Of a stretch of DNA of 64,000 nucleotides, positions 1,168 to 20,583 are shown in pieces (position 1 is the stretch's first letter; each line of letters starts with the position of its first letter). The translations under genes were made by a program, and so were the position numbers. Under the pieces are notes generated by a model. That model was not told the DNA's origin. It did not search any database and worked only from the letters and a program-made list of their open reading frames with translations. The DNA is from a virus. Location of the stretch: positions 1-64,000 of the IMG/VR virus record IMGVR_UViG_3300032799_000664; one strand, 5' to 3'.

Positions 1168-1494
1168 CTATTTCTCGAACACGTCGCGGTACGGCCCCAG
1201 CTTCTTCAGCTGGCGCAACCCCTCCACGCTCACGACACAGCCGCTGTCGAGGTCATCGATGAACAGCTCGCTCTGCCAGCGGAACGGGTCGCAGTAACAG
1301 CAGTGGTCACTGCGACCGCCGAAGAACGCCGCGCCGTTCGTGTTGGGACAGGCGAAGACGGTGAAGCTCGTCGTGGAGCCCGGCACCAGGAACGTCACCC
1401 GGTCACAGGAGATGCACCCCGCGCTGTGCGAAGGATGGTCCCGGTAGTGGCCGGCGAAGCACGACAGGCTGAGCGGGCAGCGGTCGCAGGTCAT
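1168..1494 (-). CDS. 8-Cys scaffold family member 1
   Basis: MTCDRCPLSLSCFAG...CISC...C...CCYC. Confidence 0.8.
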   Translation of the reverse strand: MTCDRCPLSLSCFAGHYRDHPSHSAGCISCDRVTFLVPGSTTSFTVFACPNTNGAAFFGGRSDHCCYCDPFRWQSELFIDDLDSGCVVSVEGLRQLKKLGPYRDVFEK

Positions 1495-1499
1495 CGCCA

Positions 1500-2240
1500 G
1501 CCTTGTACCACGACAACACGTGACGTTACGTAGCGCTGCACTACAACTCTACGACATAAAACTACAGGTAGGCAAGACCCGCCGCGCGCCCCCTCACCTG
1601 CACCGGCCCCCAGGTGTGCGAACAGTGGAGACTGATTGGCCCCTGACTTGCTGCGGTGAACTCCGCTGCGATGAGCTTAGCTGCCTAGAATCACTGAACA
1701 ACGACACTAACTCACACTGAGGCAATTTACCTACGTTTGCAGAGAATCAGCGTTCTCTTCGTTATTACTGTATGGCGTCCCCTACGAAATCTCCAATCCT
1801 AATTGCACTGCTTCTTCTATATTCATCTCATCTCTTATACTTATCTCTTAGAAGTTATTGTATAGCTGAGCTGCGCGGTGGGGAGACCTCACACACACGC
1901 GACCCTTTGCTTCACTGTGTTCCATCGGTCAGGTGCTATGATTCCTTATATTCACTTATCAATACAACCTCTTACTATCCCTTTGCTGTACGGTGTTCGG
2001 GCGGCGCGGTTGGTGAAAGTGGACGATACCTACACTGCATACATTTACCTCTATCTCCTACTCCGCTATGTCTTCGATTTCTCGTTTATAGGTCCTTCTA
2101 TATGTAGTCTCGCCACCGTTGAGCGCCCCCGAACGTCGTTTTTTACTCCTGTGACGTTGATTCTACTTTACTTTCGGTGTCCAATCGCTTTTAATGTTGG
2201 TGACCGCGATTCTCAACACCCTCAGATTCGTTGCCCAAGG
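1500..2240. other. AT-rich, pyrimidine-skewed non-coding gap between divergent genes (candidate origin or promoter region)
   Basis: Runs such as TATATTCATCTCATCTCTTATACTTATCTCTTAG in an otherwise GC-rich genome; no credible ORF. Confidence 0.5.
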
Positions 2241-2247
2241 AGTCCAG

Positions 2248-4998
2248 ATGCGTGATTATTCTCGCTTTCCCAGCGACACACTCACAAGTGTCTCCTCGCA
2301 CACGCGTGCATTGTACGGACTACTTCAGCACGTGCGCAACGCCAGCTACGCCATCCCTGAGACCGGGCCGACCGGACGCTGGCTCTCTGCCGAGCGCAAC
2401 CTGGGCCTCATCTACTGGCCCCACCTCCTCGAGAACCCGCGCAGCTGGCGCAAGCTCAGCGCGGCGCTCTACATGCCGGTCGAGATGGAGCGCGACCTGC
2501 TTCAGCAAGGCTTCCTGTTCGCGCCCACTGCCGCGCTGGCCGACGAAGCGCAGGCGTGGTGGCTCCAGCACCTCCGCAAGCGGGCTGAGGCGCTCCTGGG
2601 GCCGCTGCAGCTGCCGGGGAACGCGCCCGAGGCTATCAGTGCCATCCACACCTACTCCGCCCTGGACCCCGCGTTGCACGGCGACCCGGCGTTGCACGAC
2701 CCGGACAACTACACCGTCTTCCGCCGCATCTCCGATCACCAGGAGAAATTCCTCCAGCGGGTCATCGTCCGGCCGCCGCTCGATCTCAGCGAGTTCCTGC
2801 CACACAGCACGGCGCTGCCGGCGCCCCTGGTGGCGCTCTTCTACGCCTGGCACACTCTCTGCGAGCGGCACGTCTTGAACTTCGACCCGCACGAGATCGG
2901 CATCGACTTCGTGCGCACCGGCTGCTTCATCGTCAACTGGCGGCGTTTCGCCGCATCGCCGTACTGGCCCCGCCACCTGCGGCAGCTCGATGCGCTCGAA
3001 CGCAATGAGAGCGTCGAGATCGCTCGGCGCCGGCTGTACCAACGGCTGGGGTTGCGGGAAGGCCCGCTGCACCGGGGCCGCACCACGTCGTTCTTCACCG
3101 ACTGTGTGCCGGCGCCGTCGGACGTTGATCGCATGCTCCGCGAGTTGCCGAAGTACTGCAGCATCGCTGCGGGGCTGCCGGCGCTCGATGTAGTGCAAGT
3201 GCGGCGCCTCTTCGGTCGCGAGTTGCCGTCTCCGGGTCTCGAGTTGGCTCTCGAAAGCCGCTTGCTCGACTTCAACGAGCATGGGCTGCCCCAGAACTGC
3301 ACGCTTATCGATCCGCTGATGCTGTTGCGAGAACCGGGTCTCTTCAAAGGCGCCTGGCACCTCCAACATCTCCAGCTACAACAGCAGCGCGTGCGCCAGC
3401 GCATTCGCCGGCGGGTCGAGACTGAACAGCTCGGCCATCCCCCGACGCCGTCGCAGGTCCACGTACGGGTGCTGCGCTTCCGCCCCGCGGATTGGCTCGA
3501 TGACTTCGTCGAAGAGCCGTTGCGCACGCAGTTGAAGCTGCAGCGCAATCAACCCGGCACGGACCAGGCGCCGTGTCCGTGGTGGTTCGACAACGACCAC
3601 GTCGAGAACATCTACGCCGTGCGCAGCCGCGGGCAGTGGACTTTCACCCGCCCCCCGAGCTTGGCTGACGCCCCTGACTGTGAGCGCTTCGTCTGGCGCA
3701 AGGTGCTGCTCGAACGCCACCTCTTCGAGAGCGAGCATCTCATGGCGGCGCTGGGCAGTGACGCGGAGCGCGTCGCCTACGTGCGCCAGATGGACCGCGC
3801 TGAAGTACTGCAAGAAGCCACTGACCAGCAGCTGCTGGCCTACGCCAAGGCGGGCGTGCGCAGCGCCTATGAGGTCACGGGTAAGATCAGCACGTATCAG
3901 CGTCGATTGCTGGGTAAGCAGCGCGCTGATGCGCACAACCGTGAGACCGGCATGGACGGCCGCATGTGGTACCACCACGGGGTCGTGCGAGCGCCGGAGC
4001 AGCAGATGCCCAACCCCAACGACTACCGGCGCATCGTCCACGTGGTCATCCCCGACGGCAAAGAACAGACCTCGGACCCGACCATCGAAGAACGCCACTT
4101 CTTCACCGAGCTGGCCATCGCCAGCTTCGAACAGCACGCCCGTTCTAGCATGCGGGCGTTGCAGGACACCGAAGCTGATGGACTCCCCAGCGCGGGTGAC
4201 GCCGTCCAAGCTGCTGTGAACAGCACCGAGTCTGTGCATCGCGATGAAGATCGCGCCTATCGCGAGAACTATCAGGGCATGGCCGCCTACGTGCTGGCCT
4301 GGGCACGCTTCTGTCGCCACGTGCTGTGCTATCCCGAAACCGCTGATGAAGGCGGTGTCGGTCCGCTGGGAGTCTGGCCGTTGGCCGCAGCTACAGTGAC
4401 GCCGGAGCCAGAATGCGTCGTTCTCGGTGACCTGCCGGCCATGCCCGATGAAGAAGTCGAGCGTCAGCGTTGGACACCATGGCAAGACCACACGCTGCTG
4501 ACCAGCTACCAGCAGTTCCCAGCGCTGGACCCGACGATCCGCAGTAATCTGGCGCGCTACCTGGGCCGCGATGACGATACCTGGACCCCGCGGCTGCGGA
4601 CCTTGCGGCGCTACCTGGCACCGTTGTTCCCCCCGTCCCACGCGCTCATCGCCGGCCTGGAGCGTTGTCTCATCACCACCATCGGTGAAGTCCAGCACGT
4701 CGCCCACTCGCTGCCACTCGACGATGCCACGGCGCGCCGCTTGATTCTCAGCTACGGCCTCGCCCGGGCGCTGAAGCTGCACCAGCAGTTCGGCTTCAAT
4801 CCGCGGGTGCCGCCCCCGCCGCTGCGCTTCGCGCGGCGACTACCCGACGCCGCTTTGCTCGCGATCGAGCTGCCCCGCGACTACACCCGCCGCTCCTGGC
4901 GGCCCATCGTCATCGCCCTGGCCAAGGCGGCGGCGAAGCTGCCAGCTAAACAAACGCCGGCGTCTCGTGAAGACGACGCCGACGCCGCCACCAACTGA
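2248..4998 (+). CDS. large orphan protein (~916 aa), function unknown
   Basis: Long ORF; AAGGAG before ATG 2248 (MRDYSRFP); only substantial plus-strand gene in the left arm. Confidence 0.8.
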   Translation: MRDYSRFPSDTLTSVSSHTRALYGLLQHVRNASYAIPETGPTGRWLSAERNLGLIYWPHLLENPRSWRKLSAALYMPVEMERDLLQQGFLFAPTAALADEAQAWWLQHLRKRAEALLGPLQLPGNAPEAISAIHTYSALDPALHGDPALHDPDNYTVFRRISDHQEKFLQRVIVRPPLDLSEFLPHSTALPAPLVALFYAWHTLCERHVLNFDPHEIGIDFVRTGCFIVNWRRFAASPYWPRHLRQLDALERNESVEIARRRLYQRLGLREGPLHRGRTTSFFTDCVPAPSDVDRMLRELPKYCSIAAGLPALDVVQVRRLFGRELPSPGLELALESRLLDFNEHGLPQNCTLIDPLMLLREPGLFKGAWHLQHLQLQQQRVRQRIRRRVETEQLGHPPTPSQVHVRVLRFRPADWLDDFVEEPLRTQLKLQRNQPGTDQAPCPWWFDNDHVENIYAVRSRGQWTFTRPPSLADAPDCERFVWRKVLLERHLFESEHLMAALGSDAERVAYVRQMDRAEVLQEATDQQLLAYAKAGVRSAYEVTGKISTYQRRLLGKQRADAHNRETGMDGRMWYHHGVVRAPEQQMPNPNDYRRIVHVVIPDGKEQTSDPTIEERHFFTELAIASFEQHARSSMRALQDTEADGLPSAGDAVQAAVNSTESVHRDEDRAYRENYQGMAAYVLAWARFCRHVLCYPETADEGGVGPLGVWPLAAATVTPEPECVVLGDLPAMPDEEVERQRWTPWQDHTLLTSYQQFPALDPTIRSNLARYLGRDDDTWTPRLRTLRRYLAPLFPPSHALIAGLERCLITTIGEVQHVAHSLPLDDATARRLILSYGLARALKLHQQFGFNPRVPPPPLRFARRLPDAALLAIELPRDYTRRSWRPIVIALAKAAAKLPAKQTPASREDDADAATN

Positions 4999-5005
4999 AG
5001 CCCCG

Positions 5006-5248
5006 TCAGGCCGACGGCGTGTCGCGCGGCCGCACCGGGAACGGCCGCAGCTGCTCGAAATGCTGGGCGCTCGAGCGCAGCACCTCGCCGTTGGAGTAGC
5101 GCACCAGCACGTCGCCACCGATGCACAACTCGGGCTCACCCCGGTCGTCGACTTCGACGACTTCACCCTCGACGGTCATGACCTCGACGACCGCGGTGTC
5201 GCCGTCCCATTCTGTGATGCAGTACGTCCCACCTTGCCGCACCAGCAT
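5006..5248 (-). CDS. hypothetical protein
   Basis: AAAGGAG RBS before ATG; converges on the large plus-strand gene. Confidence 0.6.
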   Translation of the reverse strand: MLVRQGGTYCITEWDGDTAVVEVMTVEGEVVEVDDRGEPELCIGGDVLVRYSNGEVLRSSAQHFEQLRPFPVRPRDTPSA

Positions 5249-5310
5249 TGCGCGCTCCTTTCGTGAGCGTGGGGTTCGGGAACATCTTCTTATACCGAGA
5301 CTGCGGCGCG

Positions 5311-5325
5311 CTTTACGACGTAAAG
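5311..5325. promoter_or_regulatory. palindrome CTTTAC-GAC-GTAAAG (candidate operator)
   Basis: One of 7 near-identical copies; intergenic, next to a promoter-like motif. Confidence 0.6.
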
Positions 5326-5359
5326 AACACGCGTCGAGAGGGTCGACGCGCGTTGAGGT

Positions 5360-5575
5360 TCAGAAGCGCAGTGGCCGCCAGGGCTCGAGGTAGGGCACTT
5401 CGTGGAGTTCGCGGGGCTCATCTTCGCAGTGCCCTTCGTCGAGGCCATACTGCATGGCCTCTATCCAGGTGAGGGCATCGCTGCGCGACTCCCCGTAGGC
5501 CAGTCGATGATGCTGCAGCGGGCTGCCGAGATGATCGTAGCCGTAGCGGAAAAGAGGCACTTGATAGTAGGGCAT
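5360..5575 (-). CDS. hypothetical protein
   Basis: MPYYQVPL start placed just after the stop of the upstream gene. Confidence 0.5.
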   Translation of the reverse strand: MPYYQVPLFRYGYDHLGSPLQHHRLAYGESRSDALTWIEAMQYGLDEGHCEDEPRELHEVPYLEPWRPLRF

Positions 5576-5576
5576 C

Positions 5577-5969
5577 TCAGCTGCCCTGGCAGTTGTTGCA
5601 GCGTTCCCAACCGTCGTACTCGGTGTTGAAGCCATCGGTGGCGCCGCACCAGCTGCATCCCGCCACTCCGAAGAAGGCGTTGCACACCTGGCCGAAGTGC
5701 TCGAATGGCATCGTCTCGGGATCGACGCCCGCCGCGTTGCAGTACGCGATGTAGAACTCGATGGCGTTGTCGGGGTACTTCGCCACTTCGGAGTGGGCGA
5801 ACCAGTTGGCGAAGTTGGGCCGCAGTGGCACTTCGCGCAGCACCCACGCTGCGCCCATGAGTTTCTGGAACTCTCGGTACGCCTTCTCGAGATCGTCGGG
5901 GACGGGGGTCGCCAACGGAATCGAGTGCGGACCCGCGTGGAAGAAGTGCTTCAGCAATCGCACCTTCAT
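5577..5969 (-). CDS. hypothetical protein with C-terminal Zn ribbon
   Basis: AAGGAG RBS, MKVRLLKH start; CSWC...CNNC. Confidence 0.7.
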   Translation of the reverse strand: MKVRLLKHFFHAGPHSIPLATPVPDDLEKAYREFQKLMGAAWVLREVPLRPNFANWFAHSEVAKYPDNAIEFYIAYCNAAGVDPETMPFEHFGQVCNAFFGVAGCSWCGATDGFNTEYDGWERCNNCQGS

Positions 5970-6686: not shown

Positions 6687-6959
6687 TCAAGGCAGTACTA
6701 TGGGCCGTTGCCGCGACCGGGCATAGGCCGCGGGGTCACACTCGGGACAGGTCCACAGTTCATCGTACCAAGCTGATGTGGCAGTCCACGGGCCGTTCGG
6801 TGGACAGGTCAGCATGTAAGGCATCAGCTTCGTTTTGCGACGTTCAGCGATTGGCAGAAAGATGACACCTCGACCGCAACCACCTTGGCAGTAAGTGAAG
6901 CTGTGCAGAACTTCGCCGGCGAAGCAGGTGAGCGACAGCGGGCACTGGTCACAGGTCAT
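6687..6959 (-). CDS. 8-Cys scaffold family member 2
   Basis: MTCDQCPLSLTCFAG...CQGGC...C...CPEC. Confidence 0.8.
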   Translation of the reverse strand: MTCDQCPLSLTCFAGEVLHSFTYCQGGCGRGVIFLPIAERRKTKLMPYMLTCPPNGPWTATSAWYDELWTCPECDPAAYARSRQRPIVLP

Positions 6960-6965
6960 GGCTTG

Positions 6966-7637
6966 TCAACCGTGCCGCAACGTCATGGTCTGTTCGATGC
7001 GGTTAGCTTCACGTACGCCCCAAGCTAAGACTTGGCGCCACTTCTCTTCGCTGAGGGAATACGCGTCCATGAACGGTTCTCGGCGTATGTGTAACCGGTG
7101 GGCGACGTCCTGCAACGCGCGCCAATCATCGTTGACGGCGAACAGCAGCCGCTGTGGCATACGATAGGTACGCGGTCCGTGAGGACGAATCACGTAGTCG
7201 AAGACTGGTCCCAAGCGAAGATTGGTGACGGTCTCCACTGCCGGTGGCGCTACGCTCCGTGGAGTCCCCGCGGCGGTGCTGAGGGGTGCGCCAAGTCGCA
7301 CGCGCTCTTCCGCTGACATATCTGCTAGGGTTTTCACGTGCCCCGGCGCGCGCACCGGGTCCAGCGCCGCGGTGATGCGCTGGGCGATGACGAACGCCGG
7401 GTCGGCGCCGACTCCGAGACCTATCCCACGACGTTCAGACATGGTCGGCGGTCGAACCGCGATCTCGACATCAGTGAAGTGGCCCGTTTCCGGGTCGCGG
7501 GTATCTTCGCAGACCCGCACGTTGATTTTATTGCTCGGACCAACGCGTCCCAGGCTGGCACCACCGTGGTGCAATCGACCCCGTAGCTTTCGAATCGACT
7601 TTCGAGTCTTCGGTGTTCGTTTATACGTGCGCCTCAT
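6966..7637 (-). CDS. hypothetical protein, basic N-terminus
   Basis: MRRTYKRT start is ATGA-coupled to member 3. Confidence 0.65.
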   Translation of the reverse strand: MRRTYKRTPKTRKSIRKLRGRLHHGGASLGRVGPSNKINVRVCEDTRDPETGHFTDVEIAVRPPTMSERRGIGLGVGADPAFVIAQRITAALDPVRAPGHVKTLADMSAEERVRLGAPLSTAAGTPRSVAPPAVETVTNLRLGPVFDYVIRPHGPRTYRMPQRLLFAVNDDWRALQDVAHRLHIRREPFMDAYSLSEEKWRQVLAWGVREANRIEQTMTLRHG

Positions 7638-7939
7638 TTCGCTTCTTTCTCGAAGATGCGATCCATCGTTGAGCGTTGCCCTTGGGCGCGGCACTCCTGA
7701 CAGAGCACCGAGTACTCGTAGATCTCGTGCATCGGGTTCGGCATGACGGTGACCGACCCGTACGGCAGGTGCAGTGCCCGCTCCAGCTGTGCCAGATTGC
7801 CGCAGCCATGCCGCGTCACTTGATTCCAATTCTGGTCGTAGAGCACGACACTGCCGCAGTGGTAGCAGATCCCGAGATCGAGGAGCGCGACGTGACCACT
7901 GAAGCACGGCAGCGAGATGGGGCAGCGATCACAGGTCAT
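7634..7939 (-). CDS. 8-Cys scaffold family member 3
   Basis: MTCDRCPISLPCFSG...CYHC...C...CQEC; start reassigned to ATG 7939 (ATGA overlap). Confidence 0.8.
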   Translation of the reverse strand: MTCDRCPISLPCFSGHVALLDLGICYHCGSVVLYDQNWNQVTRHGCGNLAQLERALHLPYGSVTVMPNPMHEIYEYSVLCQECRAQGQRSTMDRIFEKEAK

Positions 7940-8238: not shown

Positions 8239-8499
8239 TCACTCCAGTACTTCGACGTGGTTCTTCTCCCAGCCGAAGAGCTCGCTGGGGTGACAACAGA
8301 CTGGGCACGCCGTCAGCTCATTGATACAGTTCCGGCGCAGAACGTCACAGCGCAGCACCAGGTAGTCGCCATAGGGCGGGTGGGCGCGAATCTGGTCGTG
8401 GAGCTGGATGACCACGCGGTGACAGTTGACACAGACGCTGTAGAGGTGCAGCCGGTCACCGAAGCAGCACAGGCTCACCGGACAGCGATCACAGGTCAC
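8239..8499 (-). CDS. 8-Cys scaffold family member 4
   Basis: GTG start, TCDRCPVSLCCFG...CVNC...C...CPVC; GAGGA RBS. Confidence 0.75.
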   Translation of the reverse strand: MTCDRCPVSLCCFGDRLHLYSVCVNCHRVVIQLHDQIRAHPPYGDYLVLRCDVLRRNCINELTACPVCCHPSELFGWEKNHVEVLE

Positions 8500-8761
8500 G
8501 GAGATCCTCGATGTCGGTTTGATCGACGTGGAGCAGCCACTTCTGCCGCACGTCCATGCACCGGTGACAACCGTTCCAAGCGTCGCCCAGCTCAGCGTCG
8601 CGCTCCGGTGGACAGCGCAGCAGTACGACGCGACCTCGGCCCGTCTCGGGGTTGTCCGGCAATACCACCACCGTGCAACCGCAGACGCGGCACTTTCCCC
8701 GGGAGGTAGGCAGCTGGTCACCCAAGCAGAGCAGTGCGATGGGACACTGGTCGCAGGTCAC
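8489..8761 (-). CDS. 8-Cys scaffold family member 5
   Basis: GTG start, TCDQCPIALLCLG...CRVC...C...CHRC. Confidence 0.75.
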   Translation of the reverse strand: MTCDQCPIALLCLGDQLPTSRGKCRVCGCTVVVLPDNPETGRGRVVLLRCPPERDAELGDAWNGCHRCMDVRQKWLLHVDQTDIEDLRDL

Positions 8762-9033
8762 GACGCGGGCACCGCCGTGAACTCGTAGTCCGCGCCGCGG
8801 CCTTCCTTCTGGGCCATCGCCAGGAACTTGGTGAGGCAGGCGGGGCACAGGCTCATCGCGCCGCACTGCCCACCTTTCTCGCTGGGTTTCAGCTCCTTGA
8901 CGATGACGACCGGTGGGTCTTCGCAGCGCTCCATCTGTCGAGGTCCGAGAGTCATGAAAGACCCGCCGCGCCACTCGGCCTGGCAGCGCTTGGGGTCAGG
9001 CGGCGTCAGCTTGGCCTTCTTGGTTTTGGTCAT
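8758..9033 (-). CDS. hypothetical Cys-containing protein
   Basis: MTKTKKAK start, AGGAG RBS, ATGA-coupled. Confidence 0.65.
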   Translation of the reverse strand: MTKTKKAKLTPPDPKRCQAEWRGGSFMTLGPRQMERCEDPPVVIVKELKPSEKGGQCGAMSLCPACLTKFLAMAQKEGRGADYEFTAVPAS

Positions 9034-9317
9034 CGCTTCTCCTTGGGCTGCAACCGTCGCTGGCGTTGCGCTTGGTGCCGTCGCTGGCGGCGTTGTCCTC
9101 GACAGATGTGACACGGGACGTGCATCAGGTGCAACTGCGCCGCCTCCTCGCGACAAGGGAAGCGTCGGTCGACGATGCTCAGGGGTTCGTTATGTCCGTG
9201 GGCGTAGTTGAAGCGGCGCACCACGACGCACTTGCAGACGTTACAGTAGGTCGCAGCGTGGCGGGAGATCGGACCCCCGAGACAGAGCAGTGAGATGGGG
9301 CATTCTTCACACGTCAC
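9030..9317 (-). CDS. 8-Cys scaffold family member 6
   Basis: GTG start, TCEECPISLLCLGG...CNVC...C...CHIC; Arg/Gln-rich tail. Confidence 0.75.
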   Translation of the reverse strand: MTCEECPISLLCLGGPISRHAATYCNVCKCVVVRRFNYAHGHNEPLSIVDRRFPCREEAAQLHLMHVPCHICRGQRRQRRHQAQRQRRLQPKEKR

Positions 9318-9657
9318 AGAGATCCTCGACGTCGGTATCGTCCCAGACGTGTCGGTCGTTTTCGTCGATGCGGTTCCCCAGCGAGACGATGCAGTGGGGG
9401 CACCAGCGAAACTCAGCAACCGGGGCACGGCGTCCGTGGGGACAGTGCAGCAGCACCGCGTGTCCGCGAATGGTCTCGGGCACCAGCTCACCGATGGCCG
9501 CGAGCGTCAAGCCGCTCAGGTCACGTACCCGCCACTCGTTGAAGTGAAACGTCGAGATGCTGAGGATCAGCATGGTGCGCCCACAGAGTCCCTTGCAACG
9601 CCGGCGTGGCTGGCCGCGGAGGCAGAGCAGCGAGTAGGGGCACTCGGCGCAGGTCAT
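9307..9657 (-). CDS. 8-Cys scaffold family member 7
   Basis: MTCAECPYSLLCLRG...CKGLC...C...CPHC. Confidence 0.8.
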   Translation of the reverse strand: MTCAECPYSLLCLRGQPRRRCKGLCGRTMLILSISTFHFNEWRVRDLSGLTLAAIGELVPETIRGHAVLLHCPHGRRAPVAEFRWCPHCIVSLGNRIDENDRHVWDDTDVEDLCDV

Positions 9658-9935
9658 TCTGTAGTAGCCTCGCTTGCTAGTCGTCGCTTCTGGAAGCACT
9701 CCGAACAGACCCCGTGGAAACGATCACCAGAGCAGTTCGCCCGCAATTGCTCCAGCCGCTCGCAGTAGAACCACGTCACCCAGACCCGCAGAGTGTCAGG
9801 CAGAGGCGGAATGCCGTGTCCTTCGAGGTAGTGCTGTACCTGGCCGCAGGAGAGGCACACGGCCCGATTCTCGTCGTCCAGCTGTAGTTGCCCGCTGAAG
9901 CACAGCAACGAAGCCGGGCACTGCTCGCAGGTCAT
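9654..9935 (-). CDS. 8-Cys scaffold family member 8
   Basis: MTCEQCPASLLCFSG...CLSC...C...CSEC. Confidence 0.8.
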   Translation of the reverse strand: MTCEQCPASLLCFSGQLQLDDENRAVCLSCGQVQHYLEGHGIPPLPDTLRVWVTWFYCERLEQLRANCSGDRFHGVCSECFQKRRLASEATTE

Positions 9936-10743: not shown

Positions 10744-11034
10744 CTAGGCGCTGTGCAGATCGTGGTCATCCAGGTCGAAGTACACCGTCTTGATGATGGG
10801 CACACCGCTGCGCAGGGTCTGCCGGGCACCGGACTTGCAGACAGCGCAGTGCCGAATATCTCGCGGCGAGAGGTGTGCCAATGCACTATCCAGTTGCCGC
10901 ACATTGTCGCAGATGAAGACGTTCGGTCCTGGCAGCCAGACCCGACCACAGTGGAGGCACAGCTTCACCTGCTCAGAGGCGTCGATATGACTCATGAGGC
11001 AGGTCAGCGACAGTGGGCAACGGTCACAGGTCAT
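10744..11034 (-). CDS. 8-Cys scaffold family member 9
   Basis: MTCDRCPLSLTCLM...CLHC...C...CAVC. Confidence 0.8.
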   Translation of the reverse strand: MTCDRCPLSLTCLMSHIDASEQVKLCLHCGRVWLPGPNVFICDNVRQLDSALAHLSPRDIRHCAVCKSGARQTLRSGVPIIKTVYFDLDDHDLHSA

Positions 11035-11468
11035 AGGTGCTTGTACGTCCTCCCCGGGTGGTCGTGCTTCTTGGCTACGCGACGCGATGGCTGATACCCC
11101 CGTTGAGTATCTCGTGCTAGGTCTTTCAAGCGCTGCTTCTCTGTCTTCTCGGCTTCCCGCTCATGGCGCTGGTGCGTCGCCTGGCGCGCTAGCCGACTGC
11201 GCCACTTCTTGTGCCGCTGACTGTTGGTACAATCTCGGTTACGGACGACCATCAAACGACCGGGCCGTTCATCCCAGTGCAGCGGGTCGCATTCGACGCA
11301 GACTCCCGAGCACCCGCACGGCCGCTGTTTCTCGGGGCAGCGCCAGAAGTACCAGCGTCCGTAATCAGGCAGCATGACGCCGGTCTTGCACCTCTGGCAC
11401 GCGTAGATCTGACCGTCGAGTTCGCCAGCGAAGCAGACAAACGAGAGCGGGCACTGATCACAGGTCAT
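11031..11468 (-). CDS. 8-Cys scaffold family member 10 with basic C-terminal extension
   Basis: MTCDQCPLSFVCFAG...CQRC...C...CVEC; start at ATG 11468. Confidence 0.8.
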   Translation of the reverse strand: MTCDQCPLSFVCFAGELDGQIYACQRCKTGVMLPDYGRWYFWRCPEKQRPCGCSGVCVECDPLHWDERPGRLMVVRNRDCTNSQRHKKWRSRLARQATHQRHEREAEKTEKQRLKDLARDTQRGYQPSRRVAKKHDHPGRTYKHL

Positions 11469-11752
11469 TTCGTGTAGTCCGTGAACTTCACGCGGCGGTT
11501 GTTCGAGTTGCGCCACTCCTCGGGTTTGCAGTGAGGACAGCCCGCCGAATGGCGCCGACGCCCACATTGCCGGGGCGTCGGACACCAGACGACGTGAATC
11601 AGCGGACGTAGGTCGAAGTCCTCTTCCGCTTCGTACTTCTCATACGTCGGAAAATACTCGATGAACGACAAGCGGCCACACGAGCACTCGTAGGCGTGAA
11701 AAGTACCCGCCCCGAAGCAGATAAGTGCGACGGGGCAGGTCTCGCAGCTCAC
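11465..11752 (-). CDS. 8-Cys scaffold family member 11
   Basis: (GTG)SCETCPVALICFG...CSC...C...CPHC; AAGGAG RBS. Confidence 0.75.
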   Translation of the reverse strand: MSCETCPVALICFGAGTFHAYECSCGRLSFIEYFPTYEKYEAEEDFDLRPLIHVVWCPTPRQCGRRRHSAGCPHCKPEEWRNSNNRRVKFTDYTK

Positions 11753-14499: not shown

Positions 14500-14844
14500 T
14501 CATAGGCCCGGTTCGAGGTCGCAGTCGATGATGCGCCAGCGCCGGCGCGCTTTCTGGGTGCCGTCGTCCCACTGCCACGACCAGTAGAGCGGCGAACACC
14601 GCGGGCACGAGTTGCGGGTTGCGCCGATTTGTGCCCGCGCGATGATGAGCTCCGTGTGGGGGTCTTCGTCCGCGAAGTCTTCCGGCCACCTCTTGTCGCC
14701 ATGGGGGTATCCTATCAGGTGCAGGTCCACGGAGTACACGAACAGCCGCTGACAGTTGCGGCAGCGCGTCAGCGGCAGATACTCGCCGAGGCACAGTAGC
14801 GACAGGGGACAGCGCGCACACTGGTTCGAGTTAGTGGATGACAC
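14500..14844 (-). CDS. 8-Cys scaffold family member 12 (lacks the single middle Cys)
   Basis: (GTG)SSTNSNQCARCPLSLLCLG...CRNC...CPRC; GGGAG RBS. Confidence 0.7.
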   Translation of the reverse strand: MSSTNSNQCARCPLSLLCLGEYLPLTRCRNCQRLFVYSVDLHLIGYPHGDKRWPEDFADEDPHTELIIARAQIGATRNSCPRCSPLYWSWQWDDGTQKARRRWRIIDCDLEPGL

Positions 14845-15055
14845 GCCAGATAGCTCCCCACGGTGGTGCCCAGCAACAGGGACCACGAACTTTTGCTAGT
14901 AGCTCGCCGGTGTGACGATCACAGGTCTCGAGCAACAATACGACGTTGTTCACGGTATCGATTGCGAGGGGCCGATCACACTCCATGCAACTCGCGAATA
15001 GCCAAGCACCGCCAAGGCACAGCAATGAATGCGGGCAGGCACCGCAGTCGTTCAT
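14831..15055 (-). CDS. 8-Cys scaffold family member 13
   Basis: MNDCGACPHSLLCLGG...CMEC...C...CC. Confidence 0.7.
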   Translation of the reverse strand: MNDCGACPHSLLCLGGAWLFASCMECDRPLAIDTVNNVVLLLETCDRHTGELLAKVRGPCCWAPPWGAIWRVIH

Positions 15056-15471
15056 GGGGCCTCCGCTGGTCGAGGCAAGTAGAACCCCGCCGGAGCTTCG
15101 TCGCAGTCGCGGTACAGCCACCAGCGCTCGCGCTTGCACCACTTGGCATGCGAGAAGATCAAGACGTTGCCGTCTCGACCATGGTGATAGTGGTCGACGC
15201 TGCGAGCGCATCCGGCCACGTTCCCATGCCCGATGGGATCACAGCGGATGCAGCCGCCGAAGTCCAGGTCGCTGATGTCCTTCACCGTCTTATCGGAGTG
15301 CATGAGACGGTATTGGGTGCAGCGCACGGTCACGATGACTCGCTCGTGCATGTTCGGAAACCCGTGGTAGTTGTTGATGCCGCAGACCAGGCCTTTGCAG
15401 CGGGTGCAGTACCGCACGTCGAGCGTGTCGGCGAAGCACAGCAGGGCGACTGGGCACTTCTCGCAGATCAT
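15052..15471 (-). CDS. 8-Cys scaffold family member 14
   Basis: MICEKCPVALLCFA...CTRC...C...CIRC. Confidence 0.8.
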   Translation of the reverse strand: MICEKCPVALLCFADTLDVRYCTRCKGLVCGINNYHGFPNMHERVIVTVRCTQYRLMHSDKTVKDISDLDFGGCIRCDPIGHGNVAGCARSVDHYHHGRDGNVLIFSHAKWCKRERWWLYRDCDEAPAGFYLPRPAEAP

Positions 15472-15662: not shown

Positions 15663-15943
15663 CAGCGGTCCTCTTCGTCGGGCTCGCGATCGAAGAACGT
15701 CCCGTCGTTGCTGATCTTGATGAGCGCCCGCCGCACGCAGCGTGGATCGACGGTTTGCTGTTGGATGATCGCGGCTTCGCCGATGGAATCACCATCGGTG
15801 CAGTCAGCGATGACGTCGGCCAGGTCAGCGTGGCCGGAGATCTGGCGATTGCTGTAGGCGGTGAATGTGTAGACCGTCTTCCAGATCGGTAGGCGCAGCG
15901 TATCCTGGGCGCGTAGTCGCTTCCGCTTCTTGGGCTTCGTCAC
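15662..15943 (-). CDS. hypothetical protein
   Basis: ORF in the coupled chain. Confidence 0.6.
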   Translation of the reverse strand: MTKPKKRKRLRAQDTLRLPIWKTVYTFTAYSNRQISGHADLADVIADCTDGDSIGEAAIIQQQTVDPRCVRRALIKISNDGTFFDREPDEEDR

Positions 15944-16251
15944 AGTAGGTCCGCTTTCTCGAGGCGCTGGCGGGCTTTGTCCGCGTCGTCGTGGCAGTAC
16001 TGCTTGACGCTCTCGATGAGGTCGTCGTCATCAGGGCACTCCGGGTCGAAGATGACGTTGGGATCCATGAAAATGTACTCCCCGGAGGGGAACTTCAGCT
16101 CGATGTAGAGAAAGACCATCTCGAAGACGTCGTGCGAGTCGAGCCAGGCCTTGTGGATGACCCCCTGCGGCAGGTCGAAATGCTTGACGACGTCGTCGGC
16201 GAACTCGGCGATGAATCGTTCGCAGCGGTTGCCGCGAGAGATGCTACCCAT
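15940..16251 (-). CDS. acidic hypothetical protein
   Basis: AAGGAG RBS; coupled. Confidence 0.65.
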   Translation of the reverse strand: MGSISRGNRCERFIAEFADDVVKHFDLPQGVIHKAWLDSHDVFEMVFLYIELKFPSGEYIFMDPNVIFDPECPDDDDLIESVKQYCHDDADKARQRLEKADLL

Positions 16252-16424
16252 TAGAGCTCCTTTTCGATGCTTCGGTCTTCGATGCCCTCATCGCGTATGA
16301 ACTCTTCCTGCTCGGTTTCGCCGTTGTAGGCTTTTTCGCGCGCCTCTTTCAGCGAATCAGCTTTGACGGTGTAGATCTCCGTGCGGACCATGTGTGTGAT
16401 CATCTTGAACTTGAAGATCGGCAT
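16251..16424 (-). CDS. small hypothetical protein
   Basis: GGAGG RBS before MPIFKFK. Confidence 0.55.
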   Translation of the reverse strand: MPIFKFKMITHMVRTEIYTVKADSLKEAREKAYNGETEQEEFIRDEGIEDRSIEKEL

Positions 16425-16767
16425 GCAGCCTCCGTAAACGCCGGCAGTAGTCGTTGCCGGGCTTGAAGACGCGGCAGGCCCGCGGCCGCGCCGGATAGAC
16501 TCGGCAGCGACCTCCGGGCATGAGGAACGGACATGCGATGCGGCTGATCTGGATGAACGTCCGCAGTCCGTCCTGTCCCCGACCATCGATGGTCCGTGTG
16601 AGCAGGTCGAAAGAAGTCTCGTGCTCGAGGTAGCGGTGATCGAACGTACGCATCGACAACTTGAGGAACTTGGCGAGCCGAGAGGCATCCCCAGGCTCGA
16701 GGACGATGGCGTCGAAAGCCTTGCAGCACAGTCCCGGACAGTCCTGACAGCGAATGGCGCGCGTCAT
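16357..16767 (-). CDS. YkgJ / CxxCxxCC zinc- or iron-chelating family protein
   Basis: CQDCPGLCC...CPFL...CRVYPARPRACRVF signature. Confidence 0.85.
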   Translation of the reverse strand: MTRAIRCQDCPGLCCKAFDAIVLEPGDASRLAKFLKLSMRTFDHRYLEHETSFDLLTRTIDGRGQDGLRTFIQISRIACPFLMPGGRCRVYPARPRACRVFKPGNDYCRRLRRLHADLQVQDDHTHGPHGDLHRQS

Positions 16768-17120
16768 TGCCGCGGGCGGAGGCCGTAGTTGCAGAGCAGC
16801 TGCACGACCTCATCGAGCGTATCCATACTCCAGTCCTTGTCCTCCGGCACGTAGAGGATGTCGTAGAGATCGGAGGTCAGCGCGCGGAGCTGCGGCGCCG
16901 AGAGTCCTTGGATGTGCTCATGAACCAGAATCCGCGTGTGGTCCGCCGACTGCCAGGTCTGTTCGATGAGAACGTCGCTGCTGCCGCAGCTCATGCAGAA
17001 GTCGCGATCGGAGGAATAGTAGCCACTGTCGGGCGTCCCCACGACCGGCATCAGCTCATAAACGTGGCCGCAGGCCCCGCAGGTGACTTTGACGACATGC
17101 GGATCAGCGCCGTCGGGCAT
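16764..17120 (-). CDS. Zn-ribbon hypothetical protein
   Basis: CGAC...CMSC; AAAGGA before MPDGADPH. Confidence 0.6.
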   Translation of the reverse strand: MPDGADPHVVKVTCGACGHVYELMPVVGTPDSGYYSSDRDFCMSCGSSDVLIEQTWQSADHTRILVHEHIQGLSAPQLRALTSDLYDILYVPEDKDWSMDTLDEVVQLLCNYGLRPRQ

Positions 17121-17439
17121 GTCCTTTGGGCGCAGGGTCAGGTCGCTGGGCGGGGTTGGTGTGGAGCTCCCGCCGGAGGTCTTTGAAGATCTTCTCGAAC
17201 TGCGGCCCGTTGTACCCTTTGAAGAGATACTCGAGCTGCGCTTCGGGACCCGCGATGTTGACATTCTCGATCTCCACTTCGGCTCGTTCCTGCACCAGGG
17301 GCGCGAGGTACTCAGTCAGCCACTCCTCGGCGTCGTCGGGATCGAATGCCTCGTGCACGCACTTGAGGATGTCGTGCCGCAGATCTTCGATTTGAAGAAA
17401 CGTCAGTGGCTTGCGCCGTTTGCGTCGCTTGGTCTTCAT
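17104..17439 (-). CDS. hypothetical protein
   Basis: ATGA-coupled ORF. Confidence 0.6.
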   Translation of the reverse strand: MKTKRRKRRKPLTFLQIEDLRHDILKCVHEAFDPDDAEEWLTEYLAPLVQERAEVEIENVNIAGPEAQLEYLFKGYNGPQFEKIFKDLRRELHTNPAQRPDPAPKGHARRR

Positions 17440-17708
17440 CGTGGCACCAGTTGAACGCTGAACTTCTCGCTCAGCCCATCAGCGTGATTGAAGGCACAGT
17501 AGCCCTTCCCGTCGAGAAAGAGGCGATGTTCGATGTCGCCGTGGTGTTGCAGCATGTAAGCGATGTCCTCCTTGCCGTACTGTTCTTCGAGCTCAGAGCG
17601 GGCGTAGGCGATCGCCTGGTCGGGCGTCCAGTCTTCGGGCACCGGATGGACGAGGACGTCGGTGCCCGCGGAGTGCTCGAAGAGGAGAATGGCGAGCTTC
17701 ATCTTCAT
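17436..17708 (-). CDS. hypothetical protein
   Basis: MKMKLAILL start, ATGA-coupled. Confidence 0.6.
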   Translation of the reverse strand: MKMKLAILLFEHSAGTDVLVHPVPEDWTPDQAIAYARSELEEQYGKEDIAYMLQHHGDIEHRLFLDGKGYCAFNHADGLSEKFSVQLVPR

Positions 17709-17968
17709 CGGGACACCTTCTTGCGCCGGCGACGTTGGCGACGCATGATGTCGTCGAGGCGCGTCGGCGTGATGTAGAGGATGTCGCACTCCATCCCGTC
17801 GACGGTCACCCGCAGACTGATGCCCTTGTGACTACGTGTGGGCACGGTTTCGAGATGGAGACGTTCGCGCAGCGAGACCGCGACGCAATCGCCGCAGTAG
17901 CTGTCCAGTTTCTCGCCAAGGCAGGCGATCGTCATGCCGTGCTTGGGACAGGCGATGGCTACGGTCAT
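17705..17968 (-). CDS. hypothetical protein
   Basis: CPKH...CGDC; ATGA-coupled. Confidence 0.6.
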   Translation of the reverse strand: MTVAIACPKHGMTIACLGEKLDSYCGDCVAVSLRERLHLETVPTRSHKGISLRVTVDGMECDILYITPTRLDDIMRRQRRRRKKVSR

Positions 17969-18156
17969 AGCTTCCTCACGTAGGCTCTGGGATCGAAACG
18001 ATCGGAGGCGCGTAAACCGCGCCTCCTTACGAGATTCACCAGCTGTCGCACTCGTTCTTTACCTATGTGTGCGACCGCGGCAATCTCCGCCAGCGTCGCT
18101 CCGTCCCGGCGCATCTGCGCCATCACGGTGGGAGGGAGGGTGCGCCTGAGCTTCAT
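17965..18156 (-). CDS. small HTH protein (sigma region-4-like)
   Basis: TLAEIAAVAHIGKERVRQL; GAGGAGG RBS. Confidence 0.7.
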   Translation of the reverse strand: MKLRRTLPPTVMAQMRRDGATLAEIAAVAHIGKERVRQLVNLVRRRGLRASDRFDPRAYVRKL

Positions 18157-18165
18157 GAAACCTCC

Positions 18166-18507
18166 TCAGTCGTCGTAGACGTACGTAGCCACGTGGGTTA
18201 TCTCGCCAGGCGAAGCGTAGCGGTACTTCCGACGACACGCGCTACAGATGGTGCCCATCTGGTAAAACCTCGACGGATCGCCTTCAATCAGACTACGTGA
18301 AGCACCGACCGCGTCAGGGCAAGCGCGGACGTGGATGTGCCGATGAGCTGCGATTACGCTCGCCGTGGCACTACTGAGTCTGTCGGCGATCTTAGACCAC
18401 GGCTGATCGTAGGACGTCACCTCCCAGTGCTTGCAGTACCAACACTGCCGTCGACGAAGTTGATTCTGCCAGCACAGGATGGTGTCGGGGCAGGTCGCGC
18501 AGGTCAT
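18166..18507 (-). CDS. 8-Cys scaffold family member 15
   Basis: MTCATCPDTILCWQ...CWYC...C...CSAC. Confidence 0.75.
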   Translation of the reverse strand: MTCATCPDTILCWQNQLRRRQCWYCKHWEVTSYDQPWSKIADRLSSATASVIAAHRHIHVRACPDAVGASRSLIEGDPSRFYQMGTICSACRRKYRYASPGEITHVATYVYDD

Positions 18508-18773
18508 GGCGGGGTGGCAGGTTCAGCTTCACCTTCGAAGTCCACGAGGTAGTGCAGCTTCACGGGGCGCTTACCGTCGAGGATGCGCTCGATGACGATC
18601 TTCAGCTCAGGTGCGAACTCGACCGTGTCCTGGTTGGTGTCGTTGTAGGCGTCGATGAAGTAGTGGATGAGCTCGAGCTTCTTCTCTGCGGTGCTCAGTG
18701 TCTCGTCTTCGACGAAGAGCATCTTGGTCTGCATGAGCTCGATGAGTTCGTAGTCGCTACGGAGTCTAGCCAT
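18504..18773 (-). CDS. hypothetical protein
   Basis: Coupled ORF with GGAG RBS. Confidence 0.65.
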   Translation of the reverse strand: MARLRSDYELIELMQTKMLFVEDETLSTAEKKLELIHYFIDAYNDTNQDTVEFAPELKIVIERILDGKRPVKLHYLVDFEGEAEPATPP

Positions 18774-19170
18774 GGCGGCTCCGGTCGTACTTGGCGCGGC
18801 GTTTCAGCACCGTGCACGCCTTGAGGTACGCGCTGCCCAGATCGACCCACTCTTCGTCGCCACGGGGACAGATGCAGCCTTTACGATCGGCGAAGACGCC
18901 GCCCGTAGCATTGACGGTATCGACGAATTCTTCGAGAGCTTCGAGTGCCCGTGCGTACTCCTGCAATGGCGCCAGCTCATGGGGCGGGTCAGCAACGACT
19001 GCGGTGGTCCAGCGTGTGATTTCGGCCGGTGTTTCGCCGGTGATGAGGCCTTCGTCAAAGAGGTGTTTCGCGGCCGCTTCCAGTTCGGCGAGCATGTCGG
19101 CCGGCTTCAGGCCGTTCAGTTCCACGTCGACATCGAGGGTGAGACGAAACGGCGTCGCTTTCTTCGGCAT
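18766..19170 (-). CDS. hypothetical protein
   Basis: GGAGGAG RBS. Confidence 0.65.
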   Translation of the reverse strand: MPKKATPFRLTLDVDVELNGLKPADMLAELEAAAKHLFDEGLITGETPAEITRWTTAVVADPPHELAPLQEYARALEALEEFVDTVNATGGVFADRKGCICPRGDEEWVDLGSAYLKACTVLKRRAKYDRSRHG

Positions 19171-19171
19171 G

Positions 19172-19366
19172 TCACTCCTCCGGCGTCATGTCCTCCGCCG
19201 CGTCATCCGGTCCATAGCCCGAGGACCAGTAGTCCCACAGTGGCTGCTTCGCCAACAGCAGCGTCGTGCGGGCCTCGCCGATCTTGGCCGCGATCTTGGC
19301 ATGGACCTTCTCGAGCCACGTATCGAAGCTGTGGCCGTGACGGACACCGGCGTAGTTCAGAGGCAT
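19172..19366 (-). CDS. small hypothetical protein
   Basis: MPLNYAG start. Confidence 0.5.
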   Translation of the reverse strand: MPLNYAGVRHGHSFDTWLEKVHAKIAAKIGEARTTLLLAKQPLWDYWSSGYGPDDAAEDMTPEE

Positions 19367-19659
19367 CGAGTCTTGCCCCTTCCCCCGGTGCCGTTGCTGG
19401 GGTGCGCCCACTTCGGCATTGGGCGCTTCTTCTCCAGGACCGCGACGCCCAGGCGCCGGCCGCGGAGGTATTCCTTGGCCAGGATCTGACCGTTGCTGTC
19501 GAGGGTCACGGGTGGTTCGTCCTTGTCGAGGGTCTGATCGACGGTGTCGCCCGGCTTCTCCGTGCCTTCTCGGTAGCCGTGCACGAAGCCGGTCATGAAG
19601 GCCAACGGATCGTGCGAGAAGCCACGTAGTTTGCCGAGGTCAATGTTGAAAGCGATCAT
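19357..19659 (-). CDS. hypothetical protein
   Basis: AAGGA RBS. Confidence 0.6.
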   Translation of the reverse strand: MIAFNIDLGKLRGFSHDPLAFMTGFVHGYREGTEKPGDTVDQTLDKDEPPVTLDSNGQILAKEYLRGRRLGVAVLEKKRPMPKWAHPSNGTGGRGKTRCL

Positions 19660-19673
19660 CGGAGTTTCCTTCT

Positions 19674-19979
19674 CTAGGAGCGGGGTTTCTCCAAGTGGTC
19701 ACGGTAGAGCTCGAAGCAGTTCTCCGCGTAGATCCGGCCGTCACTACGACGACCGTGGCACCTCTGGGTAGTGATGTAGATGTGCTGTACCTCTGCATTG
19801 CGCTGCCGAAAAACACCACAGATGTACGTCCAGTGGCCGACGTTGAAGAACATGGCATGACAGCTCATGCACTGGCGCAGTCGCGCTTCACGGCGCATCG
19901 ACGGCGTCCACGCTTCACCGAGGCAGATCAGCGAGTAGGGGCAGTACTGGCAGTCAGCCGCGGTGCGTAGCGCGATCAT
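19674..19979 (-). CDS. 8-Cys scaffold family member 16 (divergent)
   Basis: MIALRTAADCQYCPYSLICLG...CMSC...C... Confidence 0.7.
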   Translation of the reverse strand: MIALRTAADCQYCPYSLICLGEAWTPSMRREARLRQCMSCHAMFFNVGHWTYICGVFRQRNAEVQHIYITTQRCHGRRSDGRIYAENCFELYRDHLEKPRS

Positions 19980-20167
19980 CAGAACGTCGTCGGCATCGCC
20001 GGCGGCGGGGACGCCGGTGCCTTCTTCGATACCTTCGGGGCCGCGCCGCCGTGGAAGAAGCGATGCACGATGTCCGCCACGAGCGCTGTGACGCTGACCC
20101 CCCGCTGCTTGGCTTCACGCTGCAGGCGTTGGTACGTCTCACCTTTCACCGAGATGTCCTTCTTCAT
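19979..20167 (-). CDS. ribbon-helix-helix (CopG-like) DNA-binding protein
   Basis: MKKDISVKGETYQRLQREAKQRGVSVTALVADIV; GGAGG RBS. Confidence 0.65.
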   Translation of the reverse strand: MKKDISVKGETYQRLQREAKQRGVSVTALVADIVHRFFHGGAAPKVSKKAPASPPPAMPTTF

Positions 20168-20583
20168 GCGTCCTCCAAGGCCGCCTGGGCGACTTCGTCG
20201 AGGTCGATGTACTTGCCGTTCCAGCGCGCCACCCAGCCGCTGCAGATGACGCATTCACCGAGGACCAAGCCCATGGGCAACCGGTTGACGGGGTCCTCCG
20301 TCGTTCGAGGAATTATGTGCGCTTGTTGACGGGTTCGTGCCATCTCTTCGCGTTGCTTCTTCATCAGCTGCTGCCAGCGCCGATTCATGGCCCGATCGAA
20401 CGGTCGTTGCTCGCACTTCAGGGCATACCACAGCCCAGCGATACCCTCGTCGATTTCGCCGTTCTCTGGTACCACTGCAACGACGAAGCGCTTGCAGCGC
20501 GGACACAGTTCTGGGCGGGCTCGAGTGACACCGAGGTGGCCACTCCAGCACGCCAGGCTCAGCGGACACTCGGCGCAGCGCAT
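20164..20583 (-). CDS. 8-Cys scaffold family member 17
   Basis: MRCAECPLSLACWSG...CPRC...C...CVIC. Confidence 0.8.
   Translation of the reverse strand: MRCAECPLSLACWSGHLGVTRARPELCPRCKRFVVAVVPENGEIDEGIAGLWYALKCEQRPFDRAMNRRWQQLMKKQREEMARTRQQAHIIPRTTEDPVNRLPMGLVLGECVICSGWVARWNGKYIDLDEVAQAALEDA

Follow-up and report, generated by a model that had tools for sequence, protein, structure and literature searches.

An eight-cysteine paralogue family in a large uncultured tailed phage: seventeen genes, their conservation and their whole-gene turnover

Introduction

Large phages are rich in orphan genes, and expanded families of paralogues are one of the few handles on the function of such genes. The DNA described here, referred to as the window, comprises positions 1 to 64,000 of a linear 130,445-bp virus record from IMG/VR (IMGVR_UViG_3300032799_000664, CheckV completeness ca. 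71%). Between positions 1168 and 20583 it carries seventeen small cysteine-rich genes, which we call m01 to m17 (Table 1). A first-pass annotation took them for a candidate effector library in which a constant metal-binding frame displays diversified surfaces, for instance binders expanded in an arms race. The locus raises the question of whether these genes form one family, how their variety came about, and what the encoded proteins may do for the phage.

Identification of the paralogues

A six-frame scan of the whole contig with the pattern C..CP..[LFIVM].C[FLWIVM] gave exactly 17 matches, every one on the minus strand within 1168-20583 and none elsewhere, while 50 base shuffles of the contig gave no match at all. 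Profile A1, which was built from the 17 members, recovered the same set from the contig with no extra protein, and public gene callers report the same proteins with the same starts (e.g. P0004, P0016, P0024 and P0012). The seventeen minus-strand genes of the first-pass annotation are thereby confirmed in number and place. They are real genes, i.e. translated-frame paralogues of 74-145 amino acids, single-domain and in one orientation. The first cysteine of the head is residue 3 in 14 of the 17 members, the start codon being the one nearest the motif; it is residue 4 in m13, 9 in m12 and 10 in m16, precisely the three that had been set apart as deviants. The gap between the third cysteine and the second cysteine pair is 8-17 residues, as had been described, and M1, C3, C6, P7, C12, C27, C30 and C68 are invariant among the 17, with C65 conserved in at least 90%. 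Eight genes (m03, m04, m05, m06, m07, m10, m12 and m13) are indeed hidden in longer open reading frames (ORFs) if the first start is taken. Adjacent members overlap by 4 nt at m07/m08, m09/m10, m10/m11 and m13/m14 and by 11 nt at two further junctions (Table 1).

The heads are conserved as protein and not as DNA. Their cysteines are encoded by TGC (39) or TGT (12), the serine position by TCG (8), AGC (3) or TCA (2), the mean DNA identity of the heads is 0.63 over 136 pairs, and self-BLASTN of the whole genome revealed a single 48-bp pair of heads matching at the DNA level. Together with the ratio of non-synonymous to synonymous substitution (dN/dS, or omega) of 0.21 reported below, these synonymous differences bear out the proposal that selection acts on the protein rather than on a DNA repeat. 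The best paralogue matches within the genome are local, with 21-69% identity over 16-124 residues. Among paralogues the cysteine frame is constant and the segments between the cysteines are very different, in line with the remark that almost nothing aligns between the anchors.

Selection on loops and core

A complete relative of 197,792 bp (G001) contains 23 members of the family and is collinear with window positions 24000-515 at 77-98% nucleotide identity. It has syntenic orthologues for 11 of the 17 members, with 70-97% amino-acid identity. According to the method of Nei and Gojobori, the pooled dN/dS of these 11 pairs (1218 codons) is 0.21, with a range of 0.05-0.43. The core columns (804 codons) have a dN/dS of 0.19 and the loops plus tails (414 codons) one of 0.24, and the bootstrap interval of the loop-minus-core difference in omega runs from -0.05 to 0.14. 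As a control, 19 neighbouring non-family genes (3664 codons) gave 0.27; an orthologue in G001 is present for 19 of 22 neighbouring genes.

Each paralogue type, loops included, is held under purifying selection, and the variety of the family comes from paralogues that are old and from whole genes being gained, lost or replaced. The earlier description of the loops as hypervariable is correct between paralogues, whose best matches within the genome are local (the wider family forms 71 groups, see below), but fails between orthologues, where omega is 0.24 against 0.19 for the core. Ongoing diversification of the loops is not supported by these values, since the loops are as constrained as the core and the family (0.21) evolves no faster than its neighbours (0.27).

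Gene turnover in the array

Collinearity with G001 is interrupted at family members. The slots of m02, m08, m12 and m13 keep conserved flanks but contain non-orthologous members (ca. 30-44% identity). Relative to a block of four genes in G001, the m07->m06 junction is chimeric: upstream it shows 43/45 matches to the left edge of that block, and from the head onward 46/51 matches to the right edge. At least this one difference between two phages, of 1.6 kb and four genes, thus arose by recombination between the conserved 5' heads of two paralogues.

Public contigs were compared over positions 7600-11800, and replacements with long flanks were counted. Joints with short flanks (9651->10248, 7939->8480 and rows in which the alignment goes back) were not used as evidence alone; the 7939->8480 joint agrees with the gene order of metagenome contig L134. 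In the public contigs m08 is swapped for 339 other letters (runs X2 and X3), m06 is mostly swapped for 345 other letters (run X4), and the interior of m09 is swapped for 211 letters with head and tail kept (runs X2 and X3); insertions of 360 and 1690 letters also occur. A relative of m09 on contig L091 (1924-2660) has the same last ca. 22 residues (...RSGVPIIKTVYFDLDDHDLHSA), a similar head and a strongly diverged interior. It matches the 211-letter replacement in m09 as a mosaic within one gene. Other gene orders are found in metagenome contigs L134 and L043.

Distribution and relationships

When 1.84 billion cluster representatives were searched exhaustively with a profile, 131 proteins matched at E<=1e-3. 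Four are unrelated long repeat proteins; the other 127 are small and share the N-terminal head of the family (first cysteine at residue 3 in 87). Ten representatives that were looked up derive from JGI/IMG, ENA or Logan assemblies and are nameless or annotated as 'hypothetical protein'. A pattern search of metagenomes found 46 members in 15 of 116 loci, on one strand per locus throughout; two of these 15 loci are G001 itself. The 71 groups mentioned above result from the clustering of 167 sequences with thresholds of 35% identity and 70% of length. The m17 subtype comprises 13 clustered members, 11 of them distinct representatives at 50% identity.

Searches of Pfam, PHROGs and NCBIfam with the 17 members yielded nothing significant (none below E 0.009), and no family was matched by more than one member. 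Weak matches to the Pfam zinc ribbons DZR (E 0.1) and zf-ChsH2 (E 0.52) were obtained with one member each, and the YkgJ-type domain PF03692 matched none of the 17. With the ten longest representatives, Pfam added no domain except a sub-threshold coiled-coil match. No helix-turn-helix (HTH) or known DNA-binding domain was detected by Pfam and NCBIfam in the members or the longest representatives, nor did Pfam, PHROGs and NCBIfam reveal a nuclease, integrase or transposase motif or domain. A homologue search for longer proteins, weak evidence in this respect, gave no fused forms, and a search near member length with profile A2, which comprises 135 sequences, gave only four matches, all nameless. 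Against PDB sequences profile A2 found nothing significant; in the best match (E 0.028) only CxxCGR...CPxC is aligned, with the part of archaeal RNA polymerase A' that surrounds its zinc. ESM Atlas gave weak leads for m05 and m17, nameless or of zinc-ribbon type (scores 0.86-0.91), and a tblastn search of 50,697 phage records with m05 found chance-level matches only (E>=0.6). A search for further carriers in viral contigs gave one 13-residue match with P0007 and none with P0033, and a search of metagenome contigs with P0007 gave none.

The first-pass annotation did not recognise a named family, and the profile searches of Pfam, PHROGs, NCBIfam and PDB sequences, all without a significant match, agree with it. 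In the literature that was searched, preprint 10.64898/2026.10.24.761521 among it, no account of the motif or of a comparable phage family was found. The libraries and papers covered thus contain no description of this family, of its head and predicted fold, or of the way in which it turns over; for a small zinc-knuckle expansion in a large phage there is one described precedent, which is discussed below. The eight-cysteine signature defines the family sharply, and its 127 representatives are nameless in every library searched.

Cysteine scaffold and structural models

All eight cysteine anchors are in register in 129 of the 135 members. The number of cysteines is exactly eight in 65 members and nine in 47. 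AlphaFold2 models of two members, m05 and m17, were made with the 135-sequence alignment. The model of m05 (90 amino acids) has a mean predicted local distance difference test score (pLDDT) of 80.8, block means of 83-93 over residues 1-70 and a predicted template modelling score (pTM) of 0.64; for m17 (139 amino acids) the mean pLDDT is 90.5 and the pTM 0.84. The order of elements is the same in both: C3/C6 lie at a turn, residues 9-13 form a helix that ends at C12, strands follow the second cysteine pair, another strand stops immediately ahead of the single cysteine, and the last CxxC opens a helix. Residues 64-84 of m17 form an additional long helix, and its C-terminus adds a strand and a further helix. 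These two divergent members thus share one predicted core layout, in line with the constant frame of the first-pass annotation.

Foldseek searches of the PDB gave no match (best E 1.8 for m05 and 1.1 for m17), and the same holds for the viral models of BFVD (best E 0.12, m05). In a VIA-align comparison with 48,161 chains the best Z scores were 3.7 (m05) and 2.6 (m17), under the tool's stated chance level. Seven of the 12 weak VIA-align rows of m17 recur for m05, spanning residues ca. 1-63 of m05 and ca. 1-110 of m17, which lends indirect support to a core common to both proteins, with an insertion in m17. Fold searches discriminate small metal domains poorly, so that the lack of an analogue is not proof of a new fold.

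The eight cysteines would form two tetra-cysteine metal sites that hold a small α/β core. Site 1 would be zinc-ribbon-like and composed of two knuckles, the second (CxxCGR) and the last (CPxC), whereas site 2 would combine the N-terminal C-x2-C-P-x4-C head with the single middle cysteine. The CxxCGR and CPxC knuckles and their flanking strands are conserved and present in both models. This arrangement suggests a likeness to zinc ribbons of the Rpb9 type, for which no significant profile or fold match was obtained. Rpb9 and the zinc site of archaeal RNA polymerase A' similarly have two knuckles, CxxCGR and CPxC, flanking β-strands, but the similarity is not significant (E 0.03-0.1), there is no fold match, and the present family adds four conserved cysteines and a helix-bearing N-terminal head. 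The spacing of site 2 is that of the WhiB-type [4Fe-4S] motif, and the site could therefore hold either zinc or an iron-sulfur cluster, zinc being more likely.

Behind the last CxxC, 35 of the 135 members, belonging to several subtypes, carry a C-terminal element of the form hydrophobic-x-D-[LIV]-[DE] (YIDLDE, YFDLDD, YRDCDE and others). In m17 it occupies residues 124-129 and is modelled as a β-strand followed by a helix. In m05 and m07 the acidic tail (D-[IV]-E-D-L...) has the coding sequence ...GAC RTC GAG GAT CTC..., located at window positions 8489-8499 and 9307-9317. These tail codons include a Shine-Dalgarno-like GAGGA a few bases before the overlapping GTG start of m04 or m06, and the 20 nt preceding the two GTG starts are nearly identical. 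Part of the conservation of the tails may therefore serve translational coupling.

Resemblance to WhiB-like proteins

The head of the family can be written as C-x2-C-P-x4-C-[LFW]-x-G and is found as C..CP....C in 125 of the 135 members; the looser C-x2-C-x5-C occurs in the first 40 residues of 134. Its spacing and proline are the same as in the motif of the WhiB-like (Wbl) proteins, as seen in TM4 gp49 and in a six-sequence alignment of phage Wbl proteins. Further similarities to Wbl proteins, including the WhiB protein of TM4, are the small size, the hydrophobic residue after the motif, the presence of several paralogues per genome and the known phage-encoded cases. In WhiB1 the four invariant cysteines are C9, C37, C40 and C46, the first of them lying well upstream of C-x2-C-x5-C (available part of PMC6282962).

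Nevertheless, membership of the Wbl family was ruled out. The best scores with the Wbl profile PF02467 were 15.7 bits for the head of m14 and 12.5 bits for that of m09, against a cut-off of 23.6, and 7 of the 14 control genomes gave similar weak matches. No Wbl match emerged when the 17 members were run through hmmscan at E<=1, and hhalign aligned 18 columns, the motif alone, with E 0.002 and a probability of 14%. The G[V/I]WGG motif is present in 0/135 members, and a cysteine upstream of the head in only 1/135, which follows from the position of the head at the N-terminus. The family also differs by four further cysteines and an α/β predicted fold, its β-strands contrasting with the helical WhiB1 (available part of PMC6282962). 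The resemblance is therefore local.

Genomic setting

The contig encodes tailed-phage proteins (baseplate wedge, tail fibre, amidase, helicases and large terminase) as well as pieces resembling the β subunit of multisubunit-type RNA polymerase and a reverse transcriptase-like (RT-like) polymerase. No tRNA genes were found in the whole 130 kb. Complete relatives that were found via the terminase, i.e. G003, G005 and G006 (50%, 40% and 30% terminase identity), have no member of the family, while the same profile recovered 17 members from the present genome (G000) and 23 from G001 as positive controls. In tblastx comparison the complete relative G003 shares window positions 30-64 kb and nothing in 1-30 kb. 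Among 20 non-family ORFs of the array region, 15 have no Pfam match at E<=0.01, and the phage setting and orphan-rich surroundings noted at first reading are thus sustained. The region that contains the array is accessory, specific to the lineage and rich in orphan genes, and belongs to a large (ca. 130-200 kb) uncultured tailed phage. With 17-23 copies in a single lineage, none in complete relatives, and confident models that match no solved or viral structure, the family lends itself well to study.

Possible functions of the family

We favour, on the basis of analogy, the view that the proteins serve host takeover or counter-defence as specialised adaptors or inhibitors that bind other proteins, and consider its chances of being right to be about even. 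Each paralogue would recognise a separate macromolecular partner, in the host or in the phage, through loops and a tail that are conserved in that paralogue, and the array would be a set of such specialised proteins and not a currently hypermutating library. What points this way is the accessory location, the absence from close complete relatives, the heterogeneous charge and tails, and the replacement of members at strain level. The isoelectric point (pI) is <6 in 26 of the 135 members, 6-8 in 58 and >8 in 51, and acidic as well as basic tails occur. Should the members prove to bind host or defence proteins specifically, every conserved paralogue would lead to a different target, and recombination between heads would provide phages with a simple mechanism for rearranging a repertoire.

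Comparable arrangements are known from eukaryotic viruses. The MGF110 family of African swine fever virus (ASFV) and the ankyrin and Kelch families of poxviruses are tandem arrays of paralogues whose copy number varies between strains by recombination, and these multigene families are thought to be host-interaction factors. They concern other viruses, hosts and folds, and have no known sequence relation to the present family. Among phages, the host-takeover module of SPO1 may be compared, although its genes are not known to be mutual paralogues or cysteine-rich. According to the available part of PMC6873191, the module consists of 26 small, clustered early genes. Like the present array, it is made up of numerous small phage genes in the same orientation, most of them orphans, and at least one product is an adaptor-like binder of a host machine. 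Early timing is shown for SPO1 only.

Several observations weigh against the adaptor proposal. Purifying selection and the low divergence of the orthologues leave no arms-race signal at the codon level, and the retention of orthologues in G001 (11/17) is not clearly below that of the neighbouring genes (19/22). The basic members, about 38% of the family (51/135), and the Arg/Lys-rich tails of m06 and m10 would suit nucleic-acid binding as well. Finally, the two tetra-cysteine sites and the allotment of cysteines to them are an inference.

The strongest competitor, possible but clearly less probable than the adaptor proposal, is that the paralogues are specific transcription factors or nucleic-acid binders which time or partition phage gene expression. 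Its precedent is an expansion of ca. 35 zinc-ribbon copies in Bacillus phage G, for which the available part of a 2021 paper (PMC7824862) suggests a role as specific transcription factors. As in the present case, tens of small cysteine-knuckle paralogues of unclear role occur in a large phage and are confined to one lineage. In addition, the contig encodes its own RNA polymerase β-like pieces, and window positions 1-20000 contain no sigma-70-type promoter-like site against 3.4 expected from shuffles, so that the phage may need factors of its own. The basic members and tails just mentioned fit this explanation too, and the weak sequence likeness of the family is to zinc ribbons of RNA polymerases. 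On the other hand, 26 of the 135 members are acidic and many tails are acidic, the profile scans detected no HTH or known DNA-binding domain, and complete relatives with the same core genes have no members, which would be unexpected for essential regulators. The family profile A2 also has 0 matches at E<=1 in the 497,513-bp record of phage G (JN638751), the present proteins being distinguished by eight cysteines, a distinctive N-terminal head and their occurrence in uncultured phages of ca. 62% GC. The precedent is therefore conceptual only.

A wider proposal, doubtful in our opinion, is that the proteins have a new fold with two metals, and that the head is both a WhiB-like, possibly iron-sulfur, metal site in the protein and a homology handle in the DNA, by which the lineage would shuffle, delete and swap entire effector cassettes. 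Large uncultured phages would then have a library of specialised host-interaction proteins that is driven by recombination.

It is rather unlikely that the head holds a [4Fe-4S] cluster and that the paralogues are Wbl-like redox factors which dock on region 4 of a host or phage sigma factor and redirect transcription. The idea draws on the spacing and proline of the head in 125/135 members, the PF02467 scores of the m14 and m09 heads and the hhalign E of 0.002. Wbl proteins bind region 4 of SigA, and WhiBTM4 antagonises WhiB2 (available part of PMC6282962); here m15 adjoins a gene for a sigma-70 region-4-like protein, whose own match of 23.0 bits is below the cut-off of 24.1. A predicted complex of m15 with this adjacent protein had a score of 0.07 and a mark of 0.32, which speaks neither for nor against binding. 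Against it stand the scores below 23.6 bits, with similar weak matches in half of the controls, an hhalign match to the motif alone, the lack of G[V/I]WGG in all 135 members and of an upstream cysteine in 134, and the predicted β-strands. Moreover, the available part of PMC13013590 reports Wbl proteins only from Actinobacteria and their phages. If the head did hold an iron-sulfur cluster, the WhiB-type motif would reach beyond its known family.

Less probable still is a neutral or selfish explanation, in which the genes are cassettes ('morons') that spread and are lost via recombination of their heads and have no host-directed function. Polymorphism in presence, absence and replacement, with breakpoints at or beside heads, would agree with it, as would the differing gene orders of L134 and L043 and the complete relatives without the family. 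However, every tested orthologue pair is under purifying selection, in loops and tails too, the m17 subtype persists across 11 distinct 50%-identity representatives, and the profile scans gave no nuclease, integrase or transposase motif or domain.

A diversity-generating retroelement as the source of the variety, or a DNA repeat or ORF artefact, can be dismissed: an RT-like gene (phrog_2825/phrog_1423) does lie ca. 50 kb from the array, but self-BLASTN of the 130 kb found no template/variable repeat, which excludes such an element, and only collagen repeats, a repeat near 112.5 kb and the 48-bp head pair, whereas heads that vary at synonymous sites, a dN/dS of 0.21 and the agreement of independent gene callers reject a repeat or artefact.

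Neighbouring genes and other features

The Pfam matches of the non-family genes in the array region are to an XRE-type HTH, a YkgJ-type CxxCxxCC domain, collagen repeats and a sigma-70 region-4-like HTH (Table 1); another ORF has a weak, sub-threshold match to DUF745/ArlX. The YkgJ-type gene is interspersed with the family genes, yet is not a member. Terminator-like sites in window positions 1-20000 occur at chance level, and the scans for promoters and terminators carry little information.

Table 1. Family members and other features of the contig. Positions are those of the window unless another contig piece (L) or the genome is named; the last column gives the counterpart in the complete relative G001, with amino-acid identity and dN/dS for orthologues.
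Feature	Length (aa)	Position	Strand	Remarks	Counterpart in G001
m01	108	1168..1494	-	ATG start; head MTCDRCPLSLSCF	collinear at head end alone, remainder different
m02	90	6687..6959	-		slot holds a member with just 44% identity
m03	101	7634..7939	-	within longer 133-aa ORF call	orthologue, 78%, 0.33
m04	86	8239..8499	-	GTG start; 11-nt overlap with m05	orthologue, 70%, 0.43
m05	90	8489..8761	-	GTG start; acidic tail ...DIEDLRDL	orthologue, 87%, 0.20
m06	95	9030..9317	-	GTG start; basic tail; 11-nt overlap with m07	orthologue, 92%
m07	116	9307..9657	-	tail ...DVEDLCDV	orthologue, 87%, 0.13
m08	93	9654..9935	-		no orthologue; slot occupied by a different member
m09	96	10744..11034	-	tail ...YFDLDDHDLHSA	
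m10	145	11031..11468	-	long basic tail	orthologue, 76%, 0.18
m11	95	11465..11752	-	GTG start	orthologue, 94%, 0.17
m12	114	14500..14844	-	GTG start; head at residue 9; type with middle Cys missing and one Cys in tail	syntenic slot, just 36%
m13	74	14831..15055	-	last pair CC, not CxxC	syntenic slot, 41%
m14	139	15052..15471	-		orthologue, 73%, 0.22
m15	113	18166..18507	-	10 nt upstream of sigma-70 region-4-like HTH gene	orthologue, 90%, 0.13
m16	101	19674..19979	-	head at residue 10; last CxxC out of register	orthologue, 94%, 0.08
m17	139	20164..20583	-	long helical insert; tail YIDLDE...	orthologue, 97%, 0.05
Collagen triple-helix repeat protein		12844-13794	-	PF01391, E 1.7e-17	
XRE-type HTH protein		13820-14047	-	PF01381, E 4e-8	orthologue absent
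YkgJ-type CxxCxxCC 'zinc- or iron-chelating' domain protein		16357-16767	-	PF03692, E 4.5e-9	
Sigma-70 region-4-like HTH protein	63	17965-18156	-	23.0 bits, cut-off 24.1; 10 nt downstream of m15	90% identical
RT-like polymerase		L011:5501-7069	-	phrog_2825, weak phrog_1423	
RNA polymerase beta-like protein, multisubunit-type		L013:6210-8024	+	phrog_25354, phrog_3015	
Large terminase	886	L011:12334-14994 (genome 76334-78994)	+	terminase match only in C-terminal part	

Residues 152-254 of the large terminase have a weak thymidylate-synthase-like match. In G001 and some other relatives, the tblastn match of the terminase spans only ca. 1.5 kb of DNA yet covers query residues 1-886, a pattern that may stem from an insertion or a split in some genomes.

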